Source: an uncultured Pseudomonadota bacterium (GTDB lineage: Bacteria; Pseudomonadota; Alphaproteobacteria; RF32; CAG-239). From it: a stretch of DNA of 64,000 nucleotides. Positions within the stretch are counted from its first letter, which is position 1; the number at the start of each line of letters is the position of its first letter. The position numbers and the translations under genes are program-made. This document shows positions 1,202 to 28,395 of the stretch, one piece after another. The notes under the pieces were generated by a model. The model was not told the origin of the DNA and made no database searches. It saw only the letters and a list, made by a program, of their open reading frames with translations. The DNA is taken from contig CASFRM010000013.1 in NCBI GenBank assembly GCA_949297185.1, positions 774 through 64,773 of the forward strand, in the 5' to 3' direction.

Positions 1202-3457
1202 TTAATTTGTGCCTACGCCGCCGAGGGTTTTGAGGTAGAATGACAGGTATAAGTTAAAGTCATTTTCACTGTCGGGGTCGTCTGAATATTCTTTTTCAAT
1301 ATGGAATGCTACTCTTGAGCATTCGTCTTCATATGCAAAACCGCCGCCGTTTGATATGGTTTCGTTGTTGACCATATCTTGTCTGGTGAATACATCAACA
1401 GACCAGTTGCGGGTTACCTTTGAACTGAGCGAAAGGTATATTTCTTCGCGGCGGCTGTCAAAATAGTCGGGGTAAAGTTCTTTTAACTCTTCGTAGTAGT
1501 CTTGTTCCGGAAATAAAATATAGGAGACATATAATCTTAGCATATCGGTGCCTAAAGAGGAACTTAACTCACTGTAGTTAATACCAAAGTCTTCTTTATC
1601 TATCTTGAAGCGGTAGTTGATATCAAAATATTCGTTGGGAGCGGCATACATACGGCCTACATAATCTGAGAAATGACTGTTTTCATCCGAGGTGTTAAAC
1701 AGATCGTTATCTTTATCAAATTCGTATGTTTGTGCCAATAATAGGGAAGAACGCCCCCATTTTTTGCCATAAAAGCTCCAGTTCAAACCATAGCTTACTC
1801 GGCTGCCGGTATCATTTCTGTCATAGCCGGAATAACGATCAAGATCAAAGATGTTGACATCGGTTATTTCGACATCTCGGCTATCGGTATTGGGTATTTT
1901 TTCAGGATTATTGTCGTTGTTTGGTGATACGGCAGCAACTATTATCGGCTCAAGTATTTGTGATGTTGTTTGTGTGTTTTTTACAAATGGTAGGCGCCAT
2001 TCCAATCCCAATTGCGGGAAAATCCGTCCTGTCGCTCCGCTAAATTCTTCGCCTTCGTCATTTAGGTATTTATTAATGTAATAGAGGTCTGATTTTACCG
2101 ATGCAACCAAACGATATTTTTCTCCGTAGGGACTGGTGTATGGTAAATTCCATGAATTTATCATAGTAACTCTTTGCGAAGAGGTATCCTCATCATCATG
2201 GTATACCGAGGCCGTATTAAATGTATTTTTAAAGTAGGCTCCGTACTTATCGGGAGACGATATATTTTCATAGCTCATCAGCGGAATGACATATGGGGTG
2301 TCCCTGTTTTGCAGATTATAGCTAAGCATGTCATAATAATAGCCTTCTATGGCCGCATAATTACGGTTATCAAAGGCTTGTAATCTTACTCTTGAAGTGA
2401 GCCAAGAATCGTCTTTTTTTGGCAAAGATAGATCTTTGAGGTAGTTATGGTCGGAAGCATAGTTAATGTCGGTATCTGCGACCCAATAGTCATTTATTTC
2501 ATAACGTCCGTATAAGAATAAGTTGCCGCGATTTTTGTCGTCATCCTCATCGCGCAAAAAAGTGCCTGAAGCATTTAGTTCGCCGCGGTAAAAATATTTG
2601 TTGAGAATACCAGAATAAATTATACCTTTATCTGAAGATAGAATCGGGTTAAAGGTAAAGTTTTCATGTGGCGATATGTCCCAAAAATACTGTGGCTGTA
2701 TTGCTGCGCCAAGATAATTACTACTCTGAAGTCTTGGAAAAAGAAATCCTGAGCGATGTTTTACAGAGGGATCCGGATGCGAAAAATAAGGCGAATAAAG
2801 AACCGGAACTCCTTTTACTTCCAAAAATGCATTTTGGTACTCTATATTCTGGTCTTTGGGATCGTGTATTACTTTATCGGCCTTAAGTTGCCAAAGCGGT
2901 GATTCCCCTCTACAATTGTCACAAGGAGTATAGATAGCTTGTCTTAGGACTTTTTTATCATTAACTTTTTTGTGAAAAGAGTTTGCGGCCATGCGGGTTT
3001 TATCGGATAATACTACTTTGATGTTTGCAACATCGGCATTTTGCATGCGTTCACTTAGGTCTATCTTGTCAGCAAACATCACATTGCCGGTGTCGTCAAG
3101 AAGCACCACATTACCCTCGGCATTGATTTTATCTTTTTTTTGATCGTAAACGACTTTATCGGCACGGAGCGTGATGTTTTCTCTTATGATTTCAACCGCT
3201 CCTTTAGCGGTGATAATGCCGTTTTCGGCATCGTTTTCCATCTCGTCGGCGCTAAAATAAATGTCGGTTGGTTCTTCTGACTGGGGCTTGATTATGTCGG
3301 TCATGTTATGCTTGGGGTCAACATGACTGTTGGGTTTGGGTCTGGTCGCTTCAATGGTCTTTTTGGTGTTTAACAGTATTAGGCTATCGTCTGATGCCAA
3401 AGATGCAAGCGGCAGTAAACATATTCCGGATAATAGGAGCAAAGTGCGTTTAGTCAT
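1202..3457 (-). CDS. lptD: LPS-assembly outer-membrane protein LptD
   Basis: 751 aa with a signal peptide and a large beta-rich, Tyr/Asn-rich OMP. Synteny lptG-lptD-surA-ksgA. Its start overlaps the upstream lptG stop by 8 bp. Confidence 0.85.
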   Translation of the reverse strand: MTKRTLLLLSGICLLPLASLASDDSLILLNTKKTIEATRPKPNSHVDPKHNMTDIIKPQSEEPTDIYFSADEMENDAENGIITAKGAVEIIRENITLRADKVVYDQKKDKINAEGNVVLLDDTGNVMFADKIDLSERMQNADVANIKVVLSDKTRMAANSFHKKVNDKKVLRQAIYTPCDNCRGESPLWQLKADKVIHDPKDQNIEYQNAFLEVKGVPVLYSPYFSHPDPSVKHRSGFLFPRLQSSNYLGAAIQPQYFWDISPHENFTFNPILSSDKGIIYSGILNKYFYRGELNASGTFLRDEDDDKNRGNLFLYGRYEINDYWVADTDINYASDHNYLKDLSLPKKDDSWLTSRVRLQAFDNRNYAAIEGYYYDMLSYNLQNRDTPYVIPLMSYENISSPDKYGAYFKNTFNTASVYHDDEDTSSQRVTMINSWNLPYTSPYGEKYRLVASVKSDLYYINKYLNDEGEEFSGATGRIFPQLGLEWRLPFVKNTQTTSQILEPIIVAAVSPNNDNNPEKIPNTDSRDVEITDVNIFDLDRYSGYDRNDTGSRVSYGLNWSFYGKKWGRSSLLLAQTYEFDKDNDLFNTSDENSHFSDYVGRMYAAPNEYFDINYRFKIDKEDFGINYSELSSSLGTDMLRLYVSYILFPEQDYYEELKELYPDYFDSRREEIYLSLSSKVTRNWSVDVFTRQDMVNNETISNGGGFAYEDECSRVAFHIEKEYSDDPDSENDFNLYLSFYLKTLGGVGTN

Positions 3458-4586
3458 CTATAGCTCCTTTTATATAGGGATTTTTTTGCGGACGGCGGTG
3501 GTGTAAAATTTGCGGAAATACCAGAAGCATCAGACATGATATCAGAGGTAATATGATGTTGGCATACATCAAGATGAGCCACCACAAATTTTTGGCGGCT
3601 AAATTGCCGGAAGTTAGGTCAATGGCTTGAATCAAAATTACCGAGGCCAGCGCAACACAGACTACTTTGCCTTGACCGCGGCGGTTAAAGTTGCTTACCA
3701 AAAGTCCGGTGCAGGCTATAAGAGCATAAACTAAAGCCAATAGCGGAGTTGTTATTCTTTTGTTGCCCTCGACAAACATTTTGCGTTGTTCTTCGGCTGG
3801 GATTTTGGTGTCGTTTACTGCGGTAATAAGCTCTTTGAATGATTGTACCCTGACGCTGTTTTTGCGGCGAGCTTTAGTTTCCTTCAAGCCAAAGTCAACC
3901 GAATATTTTTCAAAATTAACCGAATAGAATGTGCCGCTTTTTTTATTTATCTCTTGGCGGTTGCCGTTTACCAACACTATGCGAGGCCCTTTGGAGGTTT
4001 GTATAATAACACCTTTTTCGGCGGTGGTTGTGGATTTTAGGTTGGGATTGCGTTCATCGTTTATTAAAATTCCGCCGACACTGCCGTCTTTGTCATGTGA
4101 GGTAACAAAAACCGTAAGTTCCGGCTGGATGGTCGTGAATTCTCCTTCGCGGAACATAAGGTGTGAAACATTATTTTTTATTTTCCATTCCAGATCGTTA
4201 AATGCGTTTTCGGCCTTAGGTATGCCAATGTTCATTACATAGATGTTTATGAATACCATTAAAAATCCGCAAAAAATTGCCGGTTTGGAAAGTTGCCATG
4301 GACTGATGCCTGATGATTTCATTACTATCAATTCTTGGTCAGATAACATTCTGTTATATACAAACAAAACTGCCGCAAAAAGAGATATGGGGGCAAGGAT
4401 GGTAAAAATGCGGGGCATCAATAGGGTGGTGAGCTCGACAAATATGCCGATGGTTATGCCTTTGGAGGCAATCATGTCCAAAAATCTTAAGGATTGCGAG
4501 AGCCATATAATCGACATCAAAGAAAAGCTTATCAGCAAAAAGCCGATAAGTATCTGCTTGGTTATGTATGTATTTAGTCTTTTCAT
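3450..4586 (-). CDS. lptG: LPS export ABC permease, YjgP/YjgQ family (LptG or LptF)
   Basis: 378 aa with six predicted TM segments and a periplasmic beta-jellyroll insert, typical of LptF/LptG. Immediately upstream of and overlapping lptD. Confidence 0.75.
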   Translation of the reverse strand: MKRLNTYITKQILIGFLLISFSLMSIIWLSQSLRFLDMIASKGITIGIFVELTTLLMPRIFTILAPISLFAAVLFVYNRMLSDQELIVMKSSGISPWQLSKPAIFCGFLMVFINIYVMNIGIPKAENAFNDLEWKIKNNVSHLMFREGEFTTIQPELTVFVTSHDKDGSVGGILINDERNPNLKSTTTAEKGVIIQTSKGPRIVLVNGNRQEINKKSGTFYSVNFEKYSVDFGLKETKARRKNSVRVQSFKELITAVNDTKIPAEEQRKMFVEGNKRITTPLLALVYALIACTGLLVSNFNRRGQGKVVCVALASVILIQAIDLTSGNLAAKNLWWLILMYANIILPLISCLMLLVFPQILHHRRPQKNPYIKGAIDD

Positions 4587-18775: not shown

Positions 18776-19806
18776 TATATAAACAAGTACAGGTCGAATC
18801 ATATTTTAAGAAGCCGGCATCTGAAATCAAGGCCGTGCTTTTGTATGGTCAAAATGAAGGATTGATTGACGAGTATACCAAAAAATTTGTTAAAACCGTA
18901 AGTGCAGATTTGTATGATCCTTTTGCGACAGCTTATTTGGATTGGGATGATGTTAAAGCCGACGGTGGAGCGGTTATGGCTGAGTATAATGCTCAGTCAT
19001 TAATGAATGTCAGAAGAGTGGTTGTGGTAAAAGAAGCTGATAATAATTTTACCAAAACTTTGGAAGCTCTTTTGGAAAACGATAAAAATGATAATCTGCT
19101 TTTGCTTATCGGCAAACAAAGCCTTAATAACAAATCTTCTTTGGTCTTGCTGGCTAATAACAATAAGGCGGTTGCCGCGGTGGCCTGTTATGAAGACAGA
19201 GAAGAAAATGTTTCATCATCAGTGCGGGCAATGTTGGCAGAAAACGGTATCACTTATGAAATGCCGGCGTTTAGCTTGTTGTGTTCGCGCTTGTCTAACG
19301 ATAGAAAAATAAATGTTTCGGAGATTGAAAAACTTATAACTTATGTCGGTACAAAAAAACACTTCACAGCCGCAGATGTTGAAGCTGTGATTTTTGATCA
19401 GGCAGCAACAGGAATGGACGATTTGTGTTTTGATGTGTTTTCCGCAAACAAAGAAAAAGCTATAAGCGGTTTGCAAAGGTTGATAAATGAGGGCGAAGAA
19501 GAAGTTCAAATCGTGAGAGCTTTGATGCGGCATGTCAGTAATCTTTTGGCAGCTAAAGCCTTAACCGAAGGGGGAATATCTGATTTAGAAGCCGTAAAGA
19601 AAGTTCTTTCGAAAAGGTTGTTTTATCGTTATGATGCTATGGCGGCACAGCTTAGAGTATGGAAAAAAGAACGGCTGTTTGATGTGATGGAACTTTTGTA
19701 TAAATCAGAAAAAGATTGCAAAACTACCAATATGCCGGTAACCGAGATTTTGTCTTATACGGTGCTTACACTACTATCTGCGGCCGGAAAACTTAAAAGA
19801 GTTTAG
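18772..19806 (+). CDS. holA: DNA polymerase III delta subunit
   Basis: 344 aa. The N-terminus (AVLLYGQNEGL) is delta-subunit-like. It sits downstream of lptE in the canonical order. Confidence 0.65.
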   Translation: MIYKQVQVESYFKKPASEIKAVLLYGQNEGLIDEYTKKFVKTVSADLYDPFATAYLDWDDVKADGGAVMAEYNAQSLMNVRRVVVVKEADNNFTKTLEALLENDKNDNLLLLIGKQSLNNKSSLVLLANNNKAVAAVACYEDREENVSSSVRAMLAENGITYEMPAFSLLCSRLSNDRKINVSEIEKLITYVGTKKHFTAADVEAVIFDQAATGMDDLCFDVFSANKEKAISGLQRLINEGEEEVQIVRALMRHVSNLLAAKALTEGGISDLEAVKKVLSKRLFYRYDAMAAQLRVWKKERLFDVMELLYKSEKDCKTTNMPVTEILSYTVLTLLSAAGKLKRV

Positions 19807-20099
19807 ATTTCAATTTGGGCTTCGTAAGCATAAATCATTTTAGGCTCTTTACCTTCGTCGCGACTTAATTCGCAGACCAGAATAGAATCCTCAAGTTGCA
19901 GTGCTGATAGGATATCTTCGGATATGTCATTAATAACAACACAATCATTGGCGTTACGGTAAAGTTCGGCGCTTTTGTTGTCAAAATCTACAACCATATA
20001 TGCATCTTCTGGTTTGCTCTCCTTGGCATATAACAAAAGCATAACTTCATCGTCTTCGTTTATCAAAAAATCGTAACTGTCAAATTTGTCTTTGTTCAT
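19803..20099 (-). CDS. Small acidic hypothetical protein; the start was moved to the RBS-supported ATG at 20099, and the full ORF runs to 20210
   Basis: An AAAGGA RBS lies 8 nt upstream of the ATG at 20099. The product is 98 aa and strongly acidic (MNKDKFDSYDFLINEDDE...). No homology was recognised. Confidence 0.35.
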   Translation of the reverse strand: MNKDKFDSYDFLINEDDEVMLLLYAKESKPEDAYMVVDFDNKSAELYRNANDCVVINDISEDILSALQLEDSILVCELSRDEGKEPKMIYAYEAQIEI

Positions 20100-20233
20100 A
20101 GTGATATCCTTTCGGTGTATGTTGGCATTATTGTACACGGCAATGCTTGAAGAAATGTTAATATGTTGCATATTCACGGTGAAAATATAGTTTATTTCTG
20201 TTAAAATCATTTCATCATGCTGAGAGGATTGTA

Positions 20234-20911
20234 ATGAGGGATTTGGTCGATAAATTTGTTAATATGCTAAAATGGCCGGTGGCATTATGGCTGCTTTTTT
20301 CGCTGCCGGCGTTTGTGAGCTCTTTGGATTATTTTAGGTTTTCGGAAATTAAATATTGGGCTTTATTCGGAGGCTTTTTTCTGTTCTTTATTGCTCGCTC
20401 ATTTATGGACTCATCGGCAAAAGTGAGCATGGAAGTGCTGGCTCATGAATTTTCGCATGCCCTGTTTGCTGTTTTGACATTGCATAAAGTGAACGGACTT
20501 AATATTAATCCGGATGACAGCGGAGGGGAAATGTCATTTGAAGGAGAAGGTAATTGGCTAATTATTATTGCGCCATACTTTTTTCCGTTCTTCGGTTTTT
20601 TGGCAATGATTGGTATTAGTATTTATACCATGTTTGCACCTATGAATCTTATCTTAAACGGTATTATGGGGTTTGTAATCGGTTATCATGTTGATACCGT
20701 GGCATCGCAAATCCATGAAAAACAAACCGATTTGCCTAAGGTCGGGTATGGCTTTTGTGCCGTATTTTTGTTGCCGGCCAATATGTGGATGATTGGTTCA
20801 ATGCTGGCTTTCAATTCAAAAGGATGGGACGGGTTTATGATGTACCAGTCCCTGATATCGCATTTGAATGGTAAAAATTTGAATTATATTGCTAACTTTT
20901 TGGGGTTTTAA
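20234..20911 (+). CDS. Polytopic membrane protein with an HExxH zincin motif (M50B-like putative metallopeptidase)
   Basis: 225 aa with five to six TM segments. AHEFSHALFA sits at a membrane boundary and is followed by a Gly/Pro-rich TM (IIAPYFFPFFGF). It is paralogous in layout to ORF 23887-24447. Confidence 0.45.
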   Translation: MRDLVDKFVNMLKWPVALWLLFSLPAFVSSLDYFRFSEIKYWALFGGFFLFFIARSFMDSSAKVSMEVLAHEFSHALFAVLTLHKVNGLNINPDDSGGEMSFEGEGNWLIIIAPYFFPFFGFLAMIGISIYTMFAPMNLILNGIMGFVIGYHVDTVASQIHEKQTDLPKVGYGFCAVFLLPANMWMIGSMLAFNSKGWDGFMMYQSLISHLNGKNLNYIANFLGF

Positions 20912-22272
20912 CCTGCAATCGCCGTTAGCAATTCTCGACTAAAGTCGGCTAATGAATTATCGTGAGCTCCCATAATGACAATTCTGTCGCCTTTACGCAC
21001 ATTGCTTAAAACAAATTTCTTTGTATCTTCTTTATGCGGCAGAAACAGAGCTTGATTATGTCCGTTTTCTTTAATGCGGTTGATTATGTTGGCCGATGAT
21101 ATGCCTACATCTTGCGGGGTGAGTTCGTAAATTTCTTGCATAATCATAATATCATCTGATGACAGAACTCGAGCAACAGCAGCTGCAACTTCATCTCCGG
21201 TGTTAACTGCCGAAAACGGGGTGTGAGGCTGGTACATTGCAATTATGCGGCCGGGGTAGTCTTTGAGAGCCGATAAAGAAGCCTCTATTTTGCTCGGGTT
21301 ATGAGCAAAGTCGTTGTAAACGGTTACGCCGTTGGCAGTGCCTATTTTTTCGAGACGAACTTTGATTCCGGTAAAGCTCTCAAGAGCCTTTGCGGCATCT
21401 AATGGATTGATGCCAACAAAAGAGCAAGCGGCTATAGTGGCAAGAGCGTTGGCAACATTGAACGCGCCTAAGAGATTAAGTTTGAAGGTTTGTCCGCGGA
21501 ATTCATATTCAACACCGTCGGCTACGCTTCTTACCGATGAGGCATAGAAATCTGCCTCGGGGTTGTGCATGGAAAAGCTCTTGCAGTTTGGATGTGTGTT
21601 AATGTGAGTGTGGTTAGGACAATCCAAGTTTATAATGAGGTTTTGAGAATTGGCGGCAAAAGCATTAAAATATTCAAACAATTTCTCCATTGAAGTGTGG
21701 TCATGAGAGATGTTGTTAATAATACCGACAAAGGGGTGATACTTGCGGATTGAACCGTCACTTTCATCAGCTTCGATTACACAGATATCACTTTCATTAT
21801 AGATATAGTTGGGGATGCCTTTGCGGTCTGAAAAATTGCACAAGGCGCCACCGTTAACCATGCAAGGCTTTTTGCCCAAGACATCTAAGACATAGCCTAT
21901 CATCGCGGTGGTGGTGGTTTTGCCGGCGGTGCCGCCGACAGCTATACCTTGCGGGTATGAGGAAAATAACTCTTGCAATAAATCGGAACGGGTCTTAATC
22001 GGAATATTTAGGGCTTGAGCAGCTTTAACATCCGGATTGTTGGGATTAATGGCTGCAGATACGCACAAGTATTCTAAGTCCGAGGTAATTCCGGAGCCAT
22101 CTTGTTTGACAATCTTGATCCCGACATCTTCAAGCGCTTGTTTGCGGTCGGCATCTTTGCCAATATCAAAACTGTAGTCTGAACCATATACTTCATAACC
22201 TTTTAGTGCCATAATTTGTTCGAGCGGACTGATGCCGTTGCCGGCTGCGCCGCTAAATGCTATCTTTTTCAT
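20908..22272 (-). CDS. mpl: Mur ligase family protein, most likely Mpl (UDP-MurNAc:tripeptide ligase) or a MurC paralog
   Basis: 454 aa with the N-terminal GSD motif and the P-loop GGTAGKTTTTAMIG. Its size fits Mpl (about 455 aa) rather than MurC (about 480-490 aa). It is solitary, lying outside any mur/fts cluster. Confidence 0.6.
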   Translation of the reverse strand: MKKIAFSGAAGNGISPLEQIMALKGYEVYGSDYSFDIGKDADRKQALEDVGIKIVKQDGSGITSDLEYLCVSAAINPNNPDVKAAQALNIPIKTRSDLLQELFSSYPQGIAVGGTAGKTTTTAMIGYVLDVLGKKPCMVNGGALCNFSDRKGIPNYIYNESDICVIEADESDGSIRKYHPFVGIINNISHDHTSMEKLFEYFNAFAANSQNLIINLDCPNHTHINTHPNCKSFSMHNPEADFYASSVRSVADGVEYEFRGQTFKLNLLGAFNVANALATIAACSFVGINPLDAAKALESFTGIKVRLEKIGTANGVTVYNDFAHNPSKIEASLSALKDYPGRIIAMYQPHTPFSAVNTGDEVAAAVARVLSSDDIMIMQEIYELTPQDVGISSANIINRIKENGHNQALFLPHKEDTKKFVLSNVRKGDRIVIMGAHDNSLADFSRELLTAIAG

Positions 22273-22292
22273 ACTGTTAAAAGTCCTTATCC

Positions 22293-23147
22293 TTATAATG
22301 CATCAAGAGTTTCTGCTTCTTGTTTTTTTAATATTTCCAAATTTTTGTAGTCTATCACTATATAGGTTTTTTTGTCGCCGTCAACACCTATGCTTAAAGC
22401 TGCAGCAATATCATCGTTGTAATAGGTGGAAAATAAAACTGCATCTCCGGACAAAAGCTGTGATAAAAATTCAGGATTGCCTATGGGAGCATTTTCAGTG
22501 ACGGTTTCTTCTTTGCCTTGAGCGTTAGTAATGGTTTTGCTTATGACGGCAGGGGTAAAGTCTTCTTGCTTGTTGCCATATTTTTTATTTAGGTATTCTG
22601 AATAGGTATTATATTCTTTCAAAACTTTTGAGGCAGAAGCATCGTCGTCTATTAGTTTGCTATAGGCTAATATGCGGTATAGCTTGTTCTCTTCGCCATA
22701 GGTAACATAAACGCGTTCAAAAAAATCTATTGCTTTAGGTAAGTTGCCGGCCAGAAAGCTATTGGCGTAATCTTCCATTTCAACGGGGGTGAGAGTTACT
22801 CCTTGGTTGCGGGTATTATCCATTGTTGAAGCCCAGTACAGACCGAACGGAGCACTGTCAAGTTCTTGTGTGGGAGCTGTTGTTGATGAAGCACTCAAAG
22901 CGCGGCTTTTGAATTCGGGGAATTTTTGCTGCCGTAATTTTATCGGTTTTTGGTTGAGAAGATTGCGAGCGGAATCAACGGCATCGGAGATATTTTCTTC
23001 GGTATTTAGATTTTGCTTTTGCTCATCGGCTGCTGTGGGAGCCGAAGGATCGAATAAAATATCTTTTGTAAATCCGTTGTCTTGACTGAATCCTACCGAA
23101 GGCAGAATGATGGTCAGACCTAATGCAATTATTGATTTTTTCATCAA
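22293..23147 (-). CDS. Secreted or periplasmic hypothetical protein
   Basis: 284 aa with a signal peptide (MMKKSIIALGLTIILPSVGFSQ). No motif was recognised. Confidence 0.45.
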   Translation of the reverse strand: MMKKSIIALGLTIILPSVGFSQDNGFTKDILFDPSAPTAADEQKQNLNTEENISDAVDSARNLLNQKPIKLRQQKFPEFKSRALSASSTTAPTQELDSAPFGLYWASTMDNTRNQGVTLTPVEMEDYANSFLAGNLPKAIDFFERVYVTYGEENKLYRILAYSKLIDDDASASKVLKEYNTYSEYLNKKYGNKQEDFTPAVISKTITNAQGKEETVTENAPIGNPEFLSQLLSGDAVLFSTYYNDDIAAALSIGVDGDKKTYIVIDYKNLEILKKQEAETLDAL

Positions 23148-23180
23148 AATCTCCTGAAAATCTTACAAATTTAGTTTGAA

Positions 23181-23196
23181 ACATAACTTATTATGT
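23181..23196. promoter_or_regulatory. Candidate TetR operator, perfect inverted repeat ACATAA-ctta-TTATGT
   Basis: A 6-bp inverted repeat with a 4-bp spacer lies 60 nt upstream of the TetR ATG, followed by a TATATATATA tract. Confidence 0.3.
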
Positions 23197-23256
23197 GCTT
23201 ATTATATATATATTTATTCGGAATGGTTACAAGTTTTTTATCAGACTGTGAAAAAC

Positions 23257-23886
23257 ATGATTGATGATAAAGATGCCAGATTAAAAGCTTTTGTCAGAAA
23301 CAAAACTAAGGAAGCTTTGCTTAACTGTGGCAGAAAGTTGGTGATAAATGAAGGAATTAATGCTTTAAGTGCCAGAAAGTTGGCGCAGGCAGCTAATTCT
23401 TCCGTGGGGATGATTTATAATATTTTTGCGACCATGGATAATTTTATCGCCGAGCAAAATGCTATGACACTAAATGAGTTATTGGAAAAAATGAGCTCAT
23501 TAACAATGTCAAAAAATCCTTTTAATAATCTCAATCATTATGCCGATGTCTTGGCTTCTTATATTATGGCAAATCCTAATCTATGGGCATTGTTATATAA
23601 TCGCTATTTGTCAGGCGATGGTTTTAAACTTACATTTGCCGAGGCCAGAATTATTAAAAAAATTGACATACTCATAAGTTTTCAAGTGGTGCCTCTGATA
23701 AAGAAAATGTCGGCTAAAGAAAAAAGGTTGTCCATAAAAGTTTTGGAAATGGCTCTGTTTGCCATGAGCGGATATTTGTTGAGTGACAGATTAAATACAA
23801 AATCTAATCTAAATAAAGAGACTTTGTGTAAGTTGTTGATGAATACATATATTGCCGGAATGGTCAGCTTGGAGGATATAAAATAA
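23257..23886 (+). CDS. TetR-family transcriptional regulator; start moved to the ATG at 23257, ORF begins at 23176
   Basis: 209 aa. The HTH region (LSARKLAQAANSSVGMIYNIF) matches the TetR_N signature. Its stop TAA abuts the ATG of the next gene. Confidence 0.75.
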   Translation: MIDDKDARLKAFVRNKTKEALLNCGRKLVINEGINALSARKLAQAANSSVGMIYNIFATMDNFIAEQNAMTLNELLEKMSSLTMSKNPFNNLNHYADVLASYIMANPNLWALLYNRYLSGDGFKLTFAEARIIKKIDILISFQVVPLIKKMSAKEKRLSIKVLEMALFAMSGYLLSDRLNTKSNLNKETLCKLLMNTYIAGMVSLEDIK

Positions 23887-24447
23887 ATGTTGGAACAAAT
23901 TTATTACAGCTTTTTGGCTTTTTGGGAATATATAAATTCTTATTCGTTTTTGCAGACTTTTTTTAATAATCGTTTTTATATGATTTTGTTGGTGATAGTT
24001 TTGATTCACCTAAAAAACGCAACCTACAGTTCTATGTTTATGAGCGCTCTAATCAACATTCCGGGAACAATCTTGCATGAGTTGATGCATTTTTTGATTG
24101 GGTTGGTGATGAATGCAAAACCTTGTAATTTTTCTCTTATTCCTAAAAGAAATATGGATGGTAATTATGTGATGGGTAGTGTGGGTTTTACCAATATTAC
24201 CTTCTATAATGCGGTGCCTTCGGCTTTGGCTCCTTTGTTGTTGCTGCCTATCGGATTTTATATTAACCGCTACATTTTGCCGGTTATTACACCATCATTT
24301 GTTAACTATACCCTGTATGTGTTGTTGCAGACAATTATCATTGAGAATTCGATGCCGTCTTCAACCGATTTTAAGGTTGCACGGTCGCATTTCTTGGGTG
24401 TGGTTATGTATACGGTATTATTTATTGCTCTTTTTACCATGATATAA
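23887..24447 (+). CDS. Polytopic membrane protein with an HExxH motif (M50B-like putative metallopeptidase), translationally coupled to the TetR gene
   Basis: 186 aa with about five TM segments. HELMHFLIGLVMN sits at a TM boundary, followed by the ALAPLLLLPIGFY TM, the same layout as ORF 20234-20911. Confidence 0.45.
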   Translation: MLEQIYYSFLAFWEYINSYSFLQTFFNNRFYMILLVIVLIHLKNATYSSMFMSALINIPGTILHELMHFLIGLVMNAKPCNFSLIPKRNMDGNYVMGSVGFTNITFYNAVPSALAPLLLLPIGFYINRYILPVITPSFVNYTLYVLLQTIIIENSMPSSTDFKVARSHFLGVVMYTVLFIALFTMI

Positions 24448-24594
24448 AAAAAAGAATCAGTAGGTGTTTAACCGATTATTTAGACTCTTGGCAGTATCTT
24501 AAAGCCATAACATGACGAATCGATAGCCGGCTTTCGGGTCGGTTGTCCTGTTATAATTATAGTTTGTGGATTAATCGTATTTAAGGAATCTGAT

Positions 24595-27024
24595 ATGATA
24601 AACCTAAAAAAAGGAAAAAGTTTGGTCGCTTGGGTGGTGGCTGCATTTTTAGCCATGACCAACGCGGCTTTAGCTTCGGAAATTGATTTGAAAATTCCGT
24701 CGCTTGATGTTTCTTATAACATCTTTGGTTATGCAATTACCGGATCACATATTTTGCTGTATGGTTTGGCAATTTGTGCGTTCGGTTTGTTGTTTGGTTT
24801 GTATGAATTTGTCGGAATTAAAAGAATGCCGGCTCATAAAGCTATGCTTAATGTTTCGCATACAATTTATGAAACATGCAAAACTTATATGAAACAACAA
24901 GCTAAATTGTTGGTGGTTTTGGAATTGTTTATTGCCGCCTGCATATTCTACTATTTCTACTATTTGAATGCAACTCCGCTGCCTAAAGTATTGACTGTTT
25001 TGGCTTGGTCAATTTTGGGTATTTTGGGTTCTTACACAGTGGCTTGGTTCGGTATGAGAATTAATACTTATGCTAACTCACGTACCGCCTTTATGTCATT
25101 GAAAGGAAAACCATATCCGGTAATGAATTTACCTTTGCGCTCCGGTATGTCTATCGGTGTTTTGCTTATCTGCGTTGAATTGGTAATGATGATTTCCATT
25201 CTTTTGTTTGTGGATAAGGAAAATGCCGGTGCTTGCTTTATCGGTTTTGCTATTGGTGAATCTCTCGGTGCTTCGGCTTTGCGTATTTGCGGCGGTATCT
25301 TTACCAAAATTGCCGATATCGGTGCCGATTTGATGAAAATTATTTTCAAAATTGACGAAGATGATGCCAGAAACCCAGGTGTGATTGCTGACTGTACCGG
25401 TGATAATGCCGGTGACTCTGTCGGACCTACCGCCGATGGTTTTGAAACCTATGGCGTGACCGGTGTGGCTTTAATCAGCTTTATCGTTTTGGGTGCCGGC
25501 ATGATGTATGCCACAAACGGCGATTTGGTTATGATGCAAAACGGAATCGACATTCAGGCAAGATTAATCGTATGGATTTTTGCCATGAGATTGTTGATGA
25601 TTTTGACATCGGTCGTTTCTTACTGGTTGAACGGCGTGTTCTCTAAATTGGCATTCGGTAAAAAAGATGCTTTCAATTTTGAAACTCCGCTGACAACATT
25701 GATTTGGTTGACATCAATCATTTCTATTTTGGTTACCTTCGGCGTATCTTATGTGATGATTGGCGATATGGATGAGAATTTGTGGTGGAAACTTTCGGTT
25801 ATTATTTCTTGCGGTACTTTGGCTGCAGCATTAATTCCGGAATTTACCAAAATTTTCACTTCCTCAAAATCCAAACATGTGGAAGAAGTGGTTAATGCTT
25901 CACGCGAAGCCGGTGCTTCTCTTAACATAATCTCCGGTATTGTTGCCGGTAACTTCTCGGCCTTTTGGCAGGGTTTGGTTATGGTCGGTTTGATGGCCGT
26001 TGCTTACTTTACCGCTCGTGAAGGTTTGGATGCTTTCATGGTATATCCGACAATATTTGCTTTTGGTTTGGTGGCTTTCGGTATGCTCGGTATGGGACCT
26101 GTGACCATTGCCGTTGACTCTTACGGACCGGTTACCGATAATGCTCAATCCGTATTTGAATTGTCACAGATTGAAAATATCAAAGGCATTAATAAAGAGA
26201 TTGAAAAAGATTACGGATTTAAGCCCGATTTTGAAAAAGGTAAACACTTCTTGGAAGAAAATGATTCAGCCGGAAATACCTTTAAGGCTACGGCTAAACC
26301 GGTATTAATCGGAACGGCCGTTATCGGTGCTACAACCATGATTTTCTCAATCATCTTGTTGTTAAACTTGCAGCTTAACCTTTTGGATCCTGAAGTATTG
26401 TTCGGTATTATACTGGGCGGTGCGGTAATATTCTGGTTCTCTGGTGCTTCAATGCAAGCCGTTTCGACCGGTGCTTATCGTGCAGTAAACTATATTAAAA
26501 AGCACATTAAGCTAAATACCGCAAAAGCTGCTTCAATCGAAGATTCAAAGAAAGTGGTACAAATTTGTACTTTGTATGCTCAAAAAGGTATGTTTAACAT
26601 CTTTATCGTGATTTTCTCTTTCACGATAGCCTTTGCATGCTTTGATGCAAATTTATTTGCCAGCTATTTGATTTCGATTGCCGTATTTGGGTTGTTCCAA
26701 GCTTTGTATATGGCTAATGCCGGCGGTGCTTGGGATAATGCCAAGAAGGTTGTTGAGGTTGATTTGGGCGAAAAAGGTACTCCGTTGCATGATGCTTCGG
26801 TAGTAGGTGATACCGTTGGTGATCCTTATAAGGATACCTCGTCGGTAGCCTTGAACCCGATTATCAAGTTCACCACTTTGTTTGGCTTGTTGGCGGTTGA
26901 AATGGCCGTGGCAGCTCCGAAGTGCGTATCTATGGGATTGGGAATCGCCTTCTTTGTTTTGGGATTGATTTTTGTATGGCGTTCTTTCTATGCCATGAGA
27001 ATCGAACCGGCAAATAAAGACTAA
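24595..27024 (+). CDS. hppA: Membrane-bound ion-pumping pyrophosphatase (M-PPase)
   Basis: 809 aa. PPase signatures are present: DCTGDNAGDSVGPTADGFETY and VGDTVGDPYKDTSSVALNPIIK. About 16 TM segments. There is an N-terminal extension of about 100 aa with a signal-peptide-like start. Confidence 0.9.
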   Translation: MINLKKGKSLVAWVVAAFLAMTNAALASEIDLKIPSLDVSYNIFGYAITGSHILLYGLAICAFGLLFGLYEFVGIKRMPAHKAMLNVSHTIYETCKTYMKQQAKLLVVLELFIAACIFYYFYYLNATPLPKVLTVLAWSILGILGSYTVAWFGMRINTYANSRTAFMSLKGKPYPVMNLPLRSGMSIGVLLICVELVMMISILLFVDKENAGACFIGFAIGESLGASALRICGGIFTKIADIGADLMKIIFKIDEDDARNPGVIADCTGDNAGDSVGPTADGFETYGVTGVALISFIVLGAGMMYATNGDLVMMQNGIDIQARLIVWIFAMRLLMILTSVVSYWLNGVFSKLAFGKKDAFNFETPLTTLIWLTSIISILVTFGVSYVMIGDMDENLWWKLSVIISCGTLAAALIPEFTKIFTSSKSKHVEEVVNASREAGASLNIISGIVAGNFSAFWQGLVMVGLMAVAYFTAREGLDAFMVYPTIFAFGLVAFGMLGMGPVTIAVDSYGPVTDNAQSVFELSQIENIKGINKEIEKDYGFKPDFEKGKHFLEENDSAGNTFKATAKPVLIGTAVIGATTMIFSIILLLNLQLNLLDPEVLFGIILGGAVIFWFSGASMQAVSTGAYRAVNYIKKHIKLNTAKAASIEDSKKVVQICTLYAQKGMFNIFIVIFSFTIAFACFDANLFASYLISIAVFGLFQALYMANAGGAWDNAKKVVEVDLGEKGTPLHDASVVGDTVGDPYKDTSSVALNPIIKFTTLFGLLAVEMAVAAPKCVSMGLGIAFFVLGLIFVWRSFYAMRIEPANKD

Positions 27025-27099: not shown

Positions 27100-28395
27100 T
27101 TGTTTGCTAAGGTGGCAATAAAAGGAGAAGTTGCCGTGTTGTTGAGCTGGATAAAATCGCTAAAAATTTATGCCGACAGAAGAATGCCTTTGATGCTGTT
27201 GCTCGGGTTTGTTTCGGGTTTGCCGTTTTTGTTGGTGTCATCTACTTTGTCTTTGTGGTTGAAAGATGTCGGTATTTCTTTGGCGGCAATCGGGCTGTTT
27301 TCGTTGGTAAAAGCTCCTTATAGTTTTAAGTGGTTGTTCTCGCCATTAATCGACCAAGTAAGTTTGCCTTTGTTATCAAGGCTTGGGCGGCGCCGTTCTT
27401 GGGCGGTGTTGTTACAGATTTTATTGATAATATCACTATTGGTGATGTCAATTTCGGAACCGAAAGTTTCGCCGGCATTATTTGCTTTTTGGGTGCTTTT
27501 GGCAGCATTGTTTTCAGCTTCGCAAGATATTGTTTTAGATGCTTATCGTATTGAGAGATTTAAGCCTAAAGAACAGGCTGCCGGTGTGGCAGTGTTTGTA
27601 TTGGGGTATAGAATCGGTACGATTTTTTCCGGAGCCGGTGCATTGTTCTTGGCAGAATTTTGGGACTGGTCAATAGTATATCAAATTATGGCTTGCGGTG
27701 TTGTCGTCGGTTTGGTGTCGATTTTGATTGCCAAGGAGCCGGAAAACAATAAGCCGTCAAAACCTAAGACTTTGCGGGCTACGGTTGTAAATGCGGTGGT
27801 AAAGCCGTTTACCGATTTTATGAAACGCGATAAATGGGCTGTTATCTTGCTGTTTATTTTCTTTTATCGGATGAGTGATGCCTATGTGGCTCCGATGGCC
27901 TATCCGTTTTTTGACGATATGGGATTTTCTAAAATTCAAATTGCTTCAATCATCAAAATTTATGGTGTGATTGCGACCATTATCGGAACGGTTATCGGTG
28001 GTGCAGTGGTTGCAAAAATCGGTTTGGTGAGAGCATTAGTTATTTGCGGATTTTTGCAAGGTTTGTCAAATCTGGTGTATGTAGGGCAGGCTTATGCCGG
28101 AAATAATACGCAGGTTTTGATGCTTAACATATTTATCGAAAATATTTCGGGTGGTATGGGTACGGCAGCTTTTGTGGCTTATTTGTCGGCGTTATGTAAC
28201 AGAAAATATACAGCGACACAGTATGCACTGTTGTCGTCGTTTATGGGAGCGGCACGCGACATTTTTGCCGCGACTTCGGGATTGGTCGCGGCAGCAGTGT
28301 CATGGCAGAGTTTCTTTATTATTACCACAATAATGGCAGTGCCGGGGTTGTTGATATTGTGGTATTTGATAAGAATAAAAGCTATAAGAGATTAG
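27100..28395 (+). CDS. ampG: Muropeptide permease AmpG (MFS)
   Basis: 431 aa with about 12 TM helices and an AmpG-type N-terminus (LLLGFVSGLPFLL..LSLWLKD). Confidence 0.7.
   Translation: MFAKVAIKGEVAVLLSWIKSLKIYADRRMPLMLLLGFVSGLPFLLVSSTLSLWLKDVGISLAAIGLFSLVKAPYSFKWLFSPLIDQVSLPLLSRLGRRRSWAVLLQILLIISLLVMSISEPKVSPALFAFWVLLAALFSASQDIVLDAYRIERFKPKEQAAGVAVFVLGYRIGTIFSGAGALFLAEFWDWSIVYQIMACGVVVGLVSILIAKEPENNKPSKPKTLRATVVNAVVKPFTDFMKRDKWAVILLFIFFYRMSDAYVAPMAYPFFDDMGFSKIQIASIIKIYGVIATIIGTVIGGAVVAKIGLVRALVICGFLQGLSNLVYVGQAYAGNNTQVLMLNIFIENISGGMGTAAFVAYLSALCNRKYTATQYALLSSFMGAARDIFAATSGLVAAAVSWQSFFIITTIMAVPGLLILWYLIRIKAIRD

Follow-up and report, generated by a model that had tools for sequence, protein, structure and literature searches.

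The locus described here raises the question of why a gene for a TetR-family regulator is directly followed by one for a small membrane protein with a metallopeptidase-type HExxH motif. It lies in contig CASFRM010000013.1, of which we analyzed a stretch of 64,000 nt; all positions are in the numbering of this stretch, which at its full length we call the window. The source of the window is an uncultured alphaproteobacterium of the gut or rumen, and its relatives are metagenome-assembled genomes (MAGs) labelled Alphaproteobacteria, "Proteobacteria bacterium CAG:495," or Candidatus Scatocola. We consider it reasonably probable that the regulator gene (tetR) and the membrane protein gene (ORF2) constitute a lineage-specific autoregulated operon, in which a ligand-released repressor controls a membrane protease as the regulated effector.

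In the proposed mechanism, a TetR dimer would bind a palindromic operator in the spacer between the −35 and −10 boxes (ACATAA-N4-TTATGT here and TTGAAC-N3-GTTCAA in most relatives) and would thereby shut its own promoter and probably also the divergent promoter lying back to back with it. A small molecule would bind the C-terminal domain of TetR and release it from DNA. ORF2, made from the same mRNA as tetR, would then act on a membrane or envelope substrate as a minimal membrane-embedded zinc metalloprotease, with H64, H68, and D161 as proposed zinc ligands and E65 as the catalytic residue; it would be a regulated effector and not a sensor. A second HExxH membrane protein, ORF1, is encoded upstream on the same strand. 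The three genes are as follows.

20234 to 20911, plus strand: ORF1, a polytopic membrane protein of 225 amino acids (aa), Peptidase_M50B-like (Pfam PF13398)
23257 to 23886, plus strand: tetR, a TetR-family regulator of 209 aa starting at ATG 23257, assigned from TetR_N, PDB profile matches, and orthologue calls
23887 to 24447, plus strand: ORF2, a 186-aa minimal M50B-like membrane zinc-protease candidate resembling the site-2 protease (S2P) clan, assigned from family conservation and links to PF13398

An earlier note, made from the letters of this DNA alone, had reported the two membrane ORFs with their motifs, and both are present: HEFSH occupies residues 71 to 75 of ORF1 (nt 20444 to 20458) and HELMH residues 64 to 68 of ORF2 (nt 24076 to 24090).

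Structure of the tetR-ORF2 gene pair

We first establish what the upstream gene encodes and where it begins. The TetR_N model matched the window protein with 21 bits (E = 2.9e-4), just below its cut-off of 24, and it matched all of the orthologues scanned (22/22 at E <=0.01; best E = 3e-8). A TetR profile recovered 17 TetR-family PDB chains, including 3cjd over residues 13 to 195 (E = 3.5e-16). These matches identify the product, on homology, as a genuine TetR-family regulator, and the near full-length match to 3cjd indicates that it retains a full C-terminal domain of the ligand-binding type. The mechanically called ORF, which starts at TTG 23176 and comprises 236 aa, is overlong: orthologous gene calls are 206 to 209 aa, their aligned N termini point to ATG 23257, and TTG 23176 belongs to the hexamer TTGAAA (23176 to 23181) of a −35 box. 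We therefore place the true start, as judged from these alignments, at ATG 23257 and not at TTG 23176.

The tetR stop codon (TAA, 23884 to 23886) directly abuts the ATG of ORF2 at 23887, and a ribosome-binding site can be read directly from the sequence within the last codons of tetR.

23871 to 23875, plus strand: Shine-Dalgarno sequence GGAGG of ORF2, 11 nt before the ATG

Of 72 distinct orthologous junctions, 65 retain a purine motif of this Shine-Dalgarno type. Between tetR and ORF2 we found neither a promoter-like nor a terminator-like site. With the TAA-ATG junction, the internal Shine-Dalgarno sequence, the conserved spacing, and the best promoter match lying upstream of tetR, the proposal in the earlier note that regulator and membrane protein share one transcription unit is borne out, and we regard the two genes as very probably cotranscribed.

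We found no clear intrinsic terminator 3' of ORF2. The next gene, for an H+-pyrophosphatase, starts at 24595; the extended −10 element TGTTATAAT lies at 24550 to 24558, 37 nt upstream of this start, and so this gene probably has a promoter of its own.

Recurrence and phyletic limits of the pairing

A survey of genomic contexts showed that the TetR/HExxH adjacency recurs in many genomes, so the pairing is not a peculiarity of the window. Within the clade, we counted 86 loci taken from the genome collection and from first look-ups, accepting as TetR orthologues proteins with a phmmer E value of <=7e-34. In 82 of these 86 loci, the distance from the end of the TetR orthologue to the start of the ORF2 orthologue is −11 to +12 nt. 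Three of the four exceptions are contig-edge or start-calling cases, and the single real one is L077 (3585 to 4540), where an ORF2 orthologue of 61% identity lies between genes for a TPR-methyltransferase and RecJ without a TetR gene; a 410-nt gap follows the TPR-methyltransferase gene, and the RecJ gene overlaps the stop of the ORF2 orthologue.

For a wider survey, we combined look-ups with a scan of metagenomes that started from distant members of the family and considered the loci for which upstream sequence was available. Where ORF2 identity is >=50%, 46 of 47 further loci have an adjacent TetR orthologue; below 50%, 1 of 28 loci does, and its identity is 47%. The boundary of the pairing thus falls at ~47 to 53% ORF2 identity, and none of the 20 immediate neighbors of distant ORF2-family members contained a TetR_N domain. 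As far as these genomes indicate, only one lineage of gut Alphaproteobacteria has ORF2 partnered with TetR.

This distribution bears on a trivial reading of the gene pair, namely that tetR and ORF2 are neighbors by descent and have no functional tie. It agrees with the observations that the whole block of ORF1, a Mur ligase gene, a gene here called p284, tetR, and ORF2 is syntenic across the clade and that the pairing was not found outside it. Nevertheless, we judge it quite unlikely, on two grounds. First, the junction stays within −11 to +12 nt and keeps its Shine-Dalgarno-like motif while TetR diverges to ~34% identity and the gene downstream of the pair shifts, being variously one for an H+-pyrophosphatase, a 384-aa protein, a Peripla_BP_6 protein, a DUF2155 protein, or a 128-aa protein (the divergent p284 and Mur ligase genes are retained throughout these changes). 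Second, the candidate operator and the recognition helix of TetR covary, as set out below.

Promoter and candidate operator

The region upstream of tetR contains three elements.

23176 to 23205, plus strand: sigma-70-type promoter of tetR-ORF2, with −35 box TTGAAA (23176 to 23181), an 18-nt spacer, and −10 box TATTAT (23200 to 23205)
23181 to 23196, no strand assigned: candidate TetR operator, the 6-4-6 palindrome ACATAA CTTA TTATGT in the spacer between the −35 and −10 boxes
23225 to 23244, no strand assigned: further conserved AT-rich element, lying past the −10 box and before the tetR start

TTGAAA-18-TATTAT is the best promoter-like match in the interval from 23000 to 24700 (10/12 positions), and relatives keep the positions of both boxes in their intergenic regions. 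The earlier note had pointed to a palindrome in this promoter; we located it in the spacer. Since TTG 23176 is part of the −35 box and tetR starts at ATG 23257, the palindrome lies upstream of the gene and inside its promoter.

Comparison across loci provided a means of linking such sites to the regulator. At the equivalent position, which overlaps the −35 box, 51 of 82 other loci carry TGAACnnnGTTCA in nearly invariant form, and TTGAACnnnGTTCAA is the palindromic site found at the same place in most relatives. Over 47 distinct sequences, the consensus reads aAATTGAACAgTGTTCA..TTT..TtTATt.TA, and the candidate operator region for a clade B TetR is TTGAACAGTGTTCAA. Loci with TGAACnnnGTTCA encode a helix-turn-helix of the form LTARKL...S[VI]G[TS]IYN. 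The 31 loci without it, which include the subclade of the window, mostly have LSARKL...SVG[MV][IV]Y; in a few of them, this helix position is occupied by I, L, or V and the site is degenerate. Within the window's subclade the spacers are often palindromic in their own right, e.g., ACATAAT-TC-ATTATGT in L008 and CATCT-TTC-AGATG in L011.

Of all the evidence for the predicted action of TetR at this promoter, this covariation of recognition helix and palindrome is the strongest, and it argues for a regulator that is functional there. The conserved pair found in relatives, TTGAACnnnGTTCAA with S-V-G-T-I-Y-N-Q-F, is directly testable and can be reused.

The AT-rich element reads GGTTACAAGTTTTTTATCAG in the window and AATTGCAAATATTTTGTTAAA in relatives, and it was seen, at a variable offset, in nearly all of the relatives' intergenic regions listed. 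It may serve as a second promoter or operator or, alternatively, as the promoter of p284.

ORF2 as a candidate member of an outlying M50B-like branch

Next, we asked what kind of membrane protein the putative repressor would control. A word-indexed search with ORF2 recovered 516 homologous proteins, and an exhaustive search recovered 730 representatives of clusters built at 50% identity (E <=1e-3), extending down to ~26 to 30% identity. Another homolog search, made with a very diverse alignment, led back mainly to the close clade already found. We assessed residue conservation over 60 diverse family sequences, down to 26% identity. H64, E65, H68, P79, and P116 are invariant among them, and P86, G97, V99, N108, A115, P157, S158, and D161 are >=90% conserved; the family thus has an invariant HExxH and a near-invariant PSxxD motif (>=90%). 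In ORF2 the latter is part of ENSMPSSTD, which holds D161 (nt 24367 to 24369), a candidate third zinc ligand by its conservation. ORF2 is polytopic by hydropathy and in an AlphaFold2 (AF2) model (predicted local distance difference test [pLDDT] score, 75.5), which shows five hydrophobic helices and one short beta-hairpin region at residues 79 to 100.

PF13398 matched 13 of the 60 distant homologs, weakly (E <=0.01). The 46%-identical homolog P0320 reached 29.9 bits over residues 35 to 173, above the cut-off of 26, and most of the family members scanned had no Pfam match. PF02163 (Peptidase_M50, the site-2 proteases proper) matched 2 of the 60, both below its cut-off (one of them with 17.2 versus 27.2 bits and E = 0.0033). 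A search of the family profile against PDB sequences gave no match even at E = 10, NCBIfam models yielded nothing useful for ORF1 or ORF2, neither protein had an M56 match in Pfam at E <=1, and the Pfam scan gave no M78 signature for ORF2.

On this pattern, we interpret ORF2 as a zincin, with the conserved HExxH in a hydrophobic helix and an Asp downstream, and its family as an outlying and previously unannotated M50B-like branch; the protein is a membrane zinc-protease candidate with predicted intramembrane hydrolysis. The suggestion in the earlier note that both membrane proteins are M50B-like zincins therefore stands, for ORF1 directly via PF13398 and for ORF2 via its family (the 13 homologs and P0320), and neither protein was confidently placed in a non-protease family. 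As a consequence, ~730 clusters of unnamed proteins can be assigned to the M50B-like intramembrane zincins, with candidate catalytic residues named. Our literature searches on PF13398 and M50B-like proteins found no functional study and no member with a tested function.

Both ORF1 and ORF2 share with PF13398 and the MEROPS M50/S2P clan a membrane-embedded HExxH helix, followed by a beta-hairpin and Pro/Gly-rich helices, and a conserved Asp ~95 residues downstream (D166 in ORF1 and D161 in ORF2). The ENxxPSxxD motif of the ORF2 family resembles the NxxPxxxxDG motif of S2Ps, which we use as a lead only. In contrast to S2Ps, the P-to-D spacing in the ORF2 family is one residue shorter, PDZ or CBS domains are lacking, and the ORF2 model has no significant structural match to the solved enzymes.

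Relationship of ORF1 to ORF2

The PF13398 match of ORF1 lies above the curated gathering score (42.7 bits versus a cut-off of 26; E = 6.9e-11), and it is partial, aligning residues 66 to 132 with positions 23 to 92 of the 201 in the profile. Positions conserved in >=95% of 40 ORF1 orthologues are H71, E72, H75, and the block H161 to V170 (HEKQTDLPKV), which contains D166; conservation makes D166 the candidate third zinc ligand of this protein.

The earlier note had called the two membrane proteins paralogous, which holds for distant membership of one superfamily and fails for close paralogy. BLASTP detected no similarity between them (best E = 7.1), and we accordingly rejected a recent duplication. 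An hhalign comparison of the ORF1 orthologues with the ORF2 family gave a probability of 88.6% (E = 2.7e-6) over only 32 columns, which cover the HExxH helix and the next strand. A global alignment places T165-D166 of ORF1, within the block of >=95% conservation, opposite T160-D161 of ORF2. The order of motifs is the same in both, namely, the HExxH helix, the beta-hairpin, a Pro-rich helix, and (S/T)D ~95 residues past HExxH; both are polytopic, with a Pro/Gly-rich helix after the HExxH region. Because of the profile comparison and the aligned T-D, we treat ORF1 and ORF2 as probable remote members of a single superfamily of M50B-like zincins.

The ORF1 gene is syntenic in most related loci. 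We take this synteny as incidental and place ORF1 outside the tetR-ORF2 operon. Divergent from ORF1 and 23 nt away is a 135-aa ORF on the minus strand (19803 to 20210) that has no family match; a 101-aa gene occupies this place in L001 and L002.

Is the membrane protein a sensor or an effector?

Pairs of a repressor gene and a protease gene are an established design, with BlaR1/BlaI and ImmA/ImmR as examples, and the earlier note had likened the present pair to these signal-transducing systems. In such a proteolytic switch, ORF2 would cleave or sequester TetR upon a membrane signal and so derepress the operon, as in BlaR1/BlaI, ImmA/ImmR, or SpoIVFB/pro-sigma-K. We find this very unlikely. The precedent counts in its favor, as do the tight and conserved joining of tetR and ORF2 in one operon and the intact zincin catalytic motif of ORF2. 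Our literature searches on TetR with site-2 proteases or with repressor cleavage returned no described pairing of a TetR regulator with an S2P-type protease, and such a switch with a TetR partner would therefore be new.

The features of the two proteins speak against it. According to the model, the sole extramembrane stretch of the 186-aa ORF2 would be a hairpin of ~30 residues belonging to the catalytic core, and for this reason the protein appears to have no sensor domain. Signatures of M56 and M78 are absent from it. Nothing in TetR points to a membrane anchor, and its full C-terminal domain, similar to 3cjd, implies direct sensing of a ligand. The active sites of intramembrane M50-type proteases act on membrane-embedded or membrane-associated segments, which is a further point against TetR as the substrate. 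Finally, 27 of the 28 family members below 50% identity, and likewise the 61%-identical one in L077, have no TetR neighbor, which suggests that the protease has a job independent of TetR. In view of the missing sensor domain and M56/M78 signatures, the lineage-limited pairing, and the complete TetR C-terminal domain, we do not uphold the BlaI/BlaR1- or ImmR/ImmA-like reading. That TetR is inactivated by a minimal sensor-less M50B-like protease encoded just downstream, in a two-gene regulated-proteolysis switch that perhaps also reports cell-wall turnover via the Mur ligase operon, seems highly doubtful. Only a demonstration of repressor cleavage would make this locus a new class of signaling system.

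Comparison with the individual systems leads in the same direction. BlaR1/BlaI and MecR1/MecI resemble the present locus in having a repressor gene and a membrane HExxH gene in one operon and a palindrome in the repressor's own promoter region. However, BlaR1 is an M56 protein with a large extracellular penicillin-binding sensor, whereas ORF2 has neither an M56 match nor a sensor domain, and the repressor there is a winged-helix protein of the BlaI/MecI/CopY type in place of TetR. With ImmA/ImmR and IrrE/DdrO (M78, COG2856), the pair shares the adjacency of an HExxH metalloprotease gene and a repressor gene; those enzymes are soluble M78 proteins with XRE-type repressors, unlike the polytopic ORF2, which has no M78 signature and a TetR partner.

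The TetR/TetA and QacR/QacA operons offer the closer parallel for a ligand-released repressor with a regulated effector. The window TetR has the TetR_N helix-turn-helix and the all-helical C-terminal domain, a palindromic candidate operator overlaps the promoter, and the adjacent regulated gene encodes a membrane protein, with both of the standard arrangements present. The differences are that this membrane protein is a zincin-type protease candidate and not an efflux pump and that ORF2 is cotranscribed downstream and not divergent. The tetR-ORF2 pair thus adds a new and well-conserved case to a known design, in which a TetR repressor gene neighbors the membrane protein gene under its control; what is unusual here is the class of effector. 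The statement in the earlier note that the pairing is not a described system is correct insofar as we found no paper on a TetR/S2P-type pair; the arrangement itself is a described layout from which TetR targets are predicted (PMC4482099).

The divergent operon and a possible link to the cell wall

Two genes are transcribed away from tetR.

22293 to 23144, minus strand: p284, a secreted protein, first gene of the divergent operon, with probable start ATG 23144
20908 to 22272, minus strand: MurC/Mpl-family Mur ligase of 454 aa, second gene of the divergent operon, with Pfam Mur_ligase N, M, and C domains

The p284 start is ~110 bp from that of tetR. According to the criteria of Ahn et al., as quoted in PMC4482099, targets of TetR regulators can be predicted among co-oriented genes at <=35 bp or divergent genes at <=200 bp. 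The locus fits both of these rules, ORF2 being co-oriented and p284 divergent. The p284/Mur ligase operon may hence be coregulated by TetR.

p284 has a signal-like N-terminal sequence and no Pfam match, and its family of 148 proteins is restricted to the clade, where the p284 gene always opens the operon that diverges from tetR. Its C-terminal domain (residues 100 to 284) was modeled by AF2 with pLDDT >90, and Foldseek recovered weak PsbP/DcrB-like matches (E = 4e-3 to 1e-2, with low TM-scores). In more distant relatives a larger protein of 352 to 426 aa occupies the p284 position; this comparison is by position alone. The Mur ligase gene adjoins p284 in nearly all loci, and its product scored 280 bits with the NCBIfam murC model (cut-off, 335) and 149 bits with mpl, below the curated cut-offs of both. 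A gene for LdcA (Peptidase_S66, LD-carboxypeptidase) follows the ligase gene in L090 (1 to 2217) and L095 (1 to 2023), and in the window an ampG gene lies 2.6 kb downstream (27100 to 28395, plus strand). The ligase, LdcA in relatives, and AmpG in the window together hint at a peptidoglycan-recycling neighborhood.

Pursued further, this hint would make p284 and the MurC/Mpl-type ligase operon the main target of TetR, with a muropeptide or UDP-MurNAc-peptide as the ligand and ORF2 coinduced for the processing of envelope proteins. We regard such a cell-wall regulon as unlikely. Wherever the pair exists, the divergent layout is conserved, with ~110 bp separating the two starts, and this includes loci with 47% and 53% ORF2 identity where LdcA follows the ligase; AmpG is encoded nearby; and divergent neighbors within 200 bp count as reliable TetR targets by the rule quoted above (PMC4482099). 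Yet the ligase resembles MurC more than Mpl while reaching neither cut-off, p284 has only its weak fold matches, no observation points to a particular ligand, in most relatives ampG does not adjoin the locus, and the mapped promoter that the candidate operator overlaps is that of tetR.

Evidence weighed against the proposed effector operon

Several observations weigh against the interpretation that we prefer, a ligand-released repressor with ORF2 as its regulated effector. The palindrome of the window is by itself not statistically unusual: it matches once in the 64 kb, where 0.34 matches are expected, and at least one match occurred in 28 of 100 shuffled sequences. What lends it weight is where it lies, together with the palindrome that relatives conserve there. 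Only L007 and L008, the two nearest relatives, share its arms exactly (with a different loop), and other members of the subclade have differing, partly palindromic spacers, so the operator of this genome is not firmly defined. ORF2 itself had no Pfam match at E <=1, and a Foldseek search of its model against the PDB gave no significant neighbor, SpoIVFB (8vjl) appearing at E = 2.9. Because the whole neighborhood is syntenic in the clade, part of the recurrence of the pair reflects shared descent. All of the organisms are uncultured MAGs known from sequence, and the ligand and substrate are both postulated. Gene structure, family assignments, the conserved junction, and the conserved and covarying operator are observed in the sequences; binding of TetR to DNA, its repressor function, its ligand, and the proteolytic activity of ORF2 and its substrate are predicted. 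If the prediction is right, a protease under TetR control beside a Mur ligase operon in uncultured gut Alphaproteobacteria would give a handle on the function of M50B-like proteins.

Genomic setting of the locus and other contexts of the ORF2 family

The flanking genes of the locus are of the housekeeping type (LeuRS, LptE-like, HolA, H+-pyrophosphatase, and AmpG). Searches of ORF1, ORF2, TetR, and p284 against PHROGs and PADLOC produced nothing relevant, the sole matches being two marginal ones in PADLOC for TetR (E ~0.005). We rejected an origin from a defense system or a prophage on account of these searches and the housekeeping flanks.

Distant members of the ORF2 family occur in a variety of other settings. 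The member in Magnetofaba stands alone, and another has pilin-like gene neighbors. A 39%-identical member in L087 (230 to 8503) lies in an operon after a gene for an OmpA-domain protein, flanked by genes for a Pkinase/FGE-sulfatase protein, an RVT_1/FGE-sulfatase reverse transcriptase, and a PP2C phosphatase, which raises the possibility of a diversity-generating or signaling cassette. Members with ~43 to 52% local identity were found in phage-like contexts in L096 (424 to 3918) and L097 (3 to 5693), with genes for an RNase_T exonuclease, SSB, a DEAD helicase, and the small subunit of ribonucleotide reductase as neighbors. Each of these two overlaps the stop of an unannotated protein of 375 to 383 aa, and neither matches PHROGs.

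A further set with 27 to 40% identity comes from environmental metagenomes (L100, L102, L152, L155, L156, L161 [about 2400 to 4100 in each], L164, L167, L171, L172, and L176). Its members are encoded between genes for TrbC_Ftype, thioredoxin/DsbA-like, and SH3_3 lipoprotein products and genes for very large Cys-rich proteins. This gene order suggests F-type conjugative transfer clusters, and the zincin of these conjugation-like clusters could be a processing enzyme of such systems.

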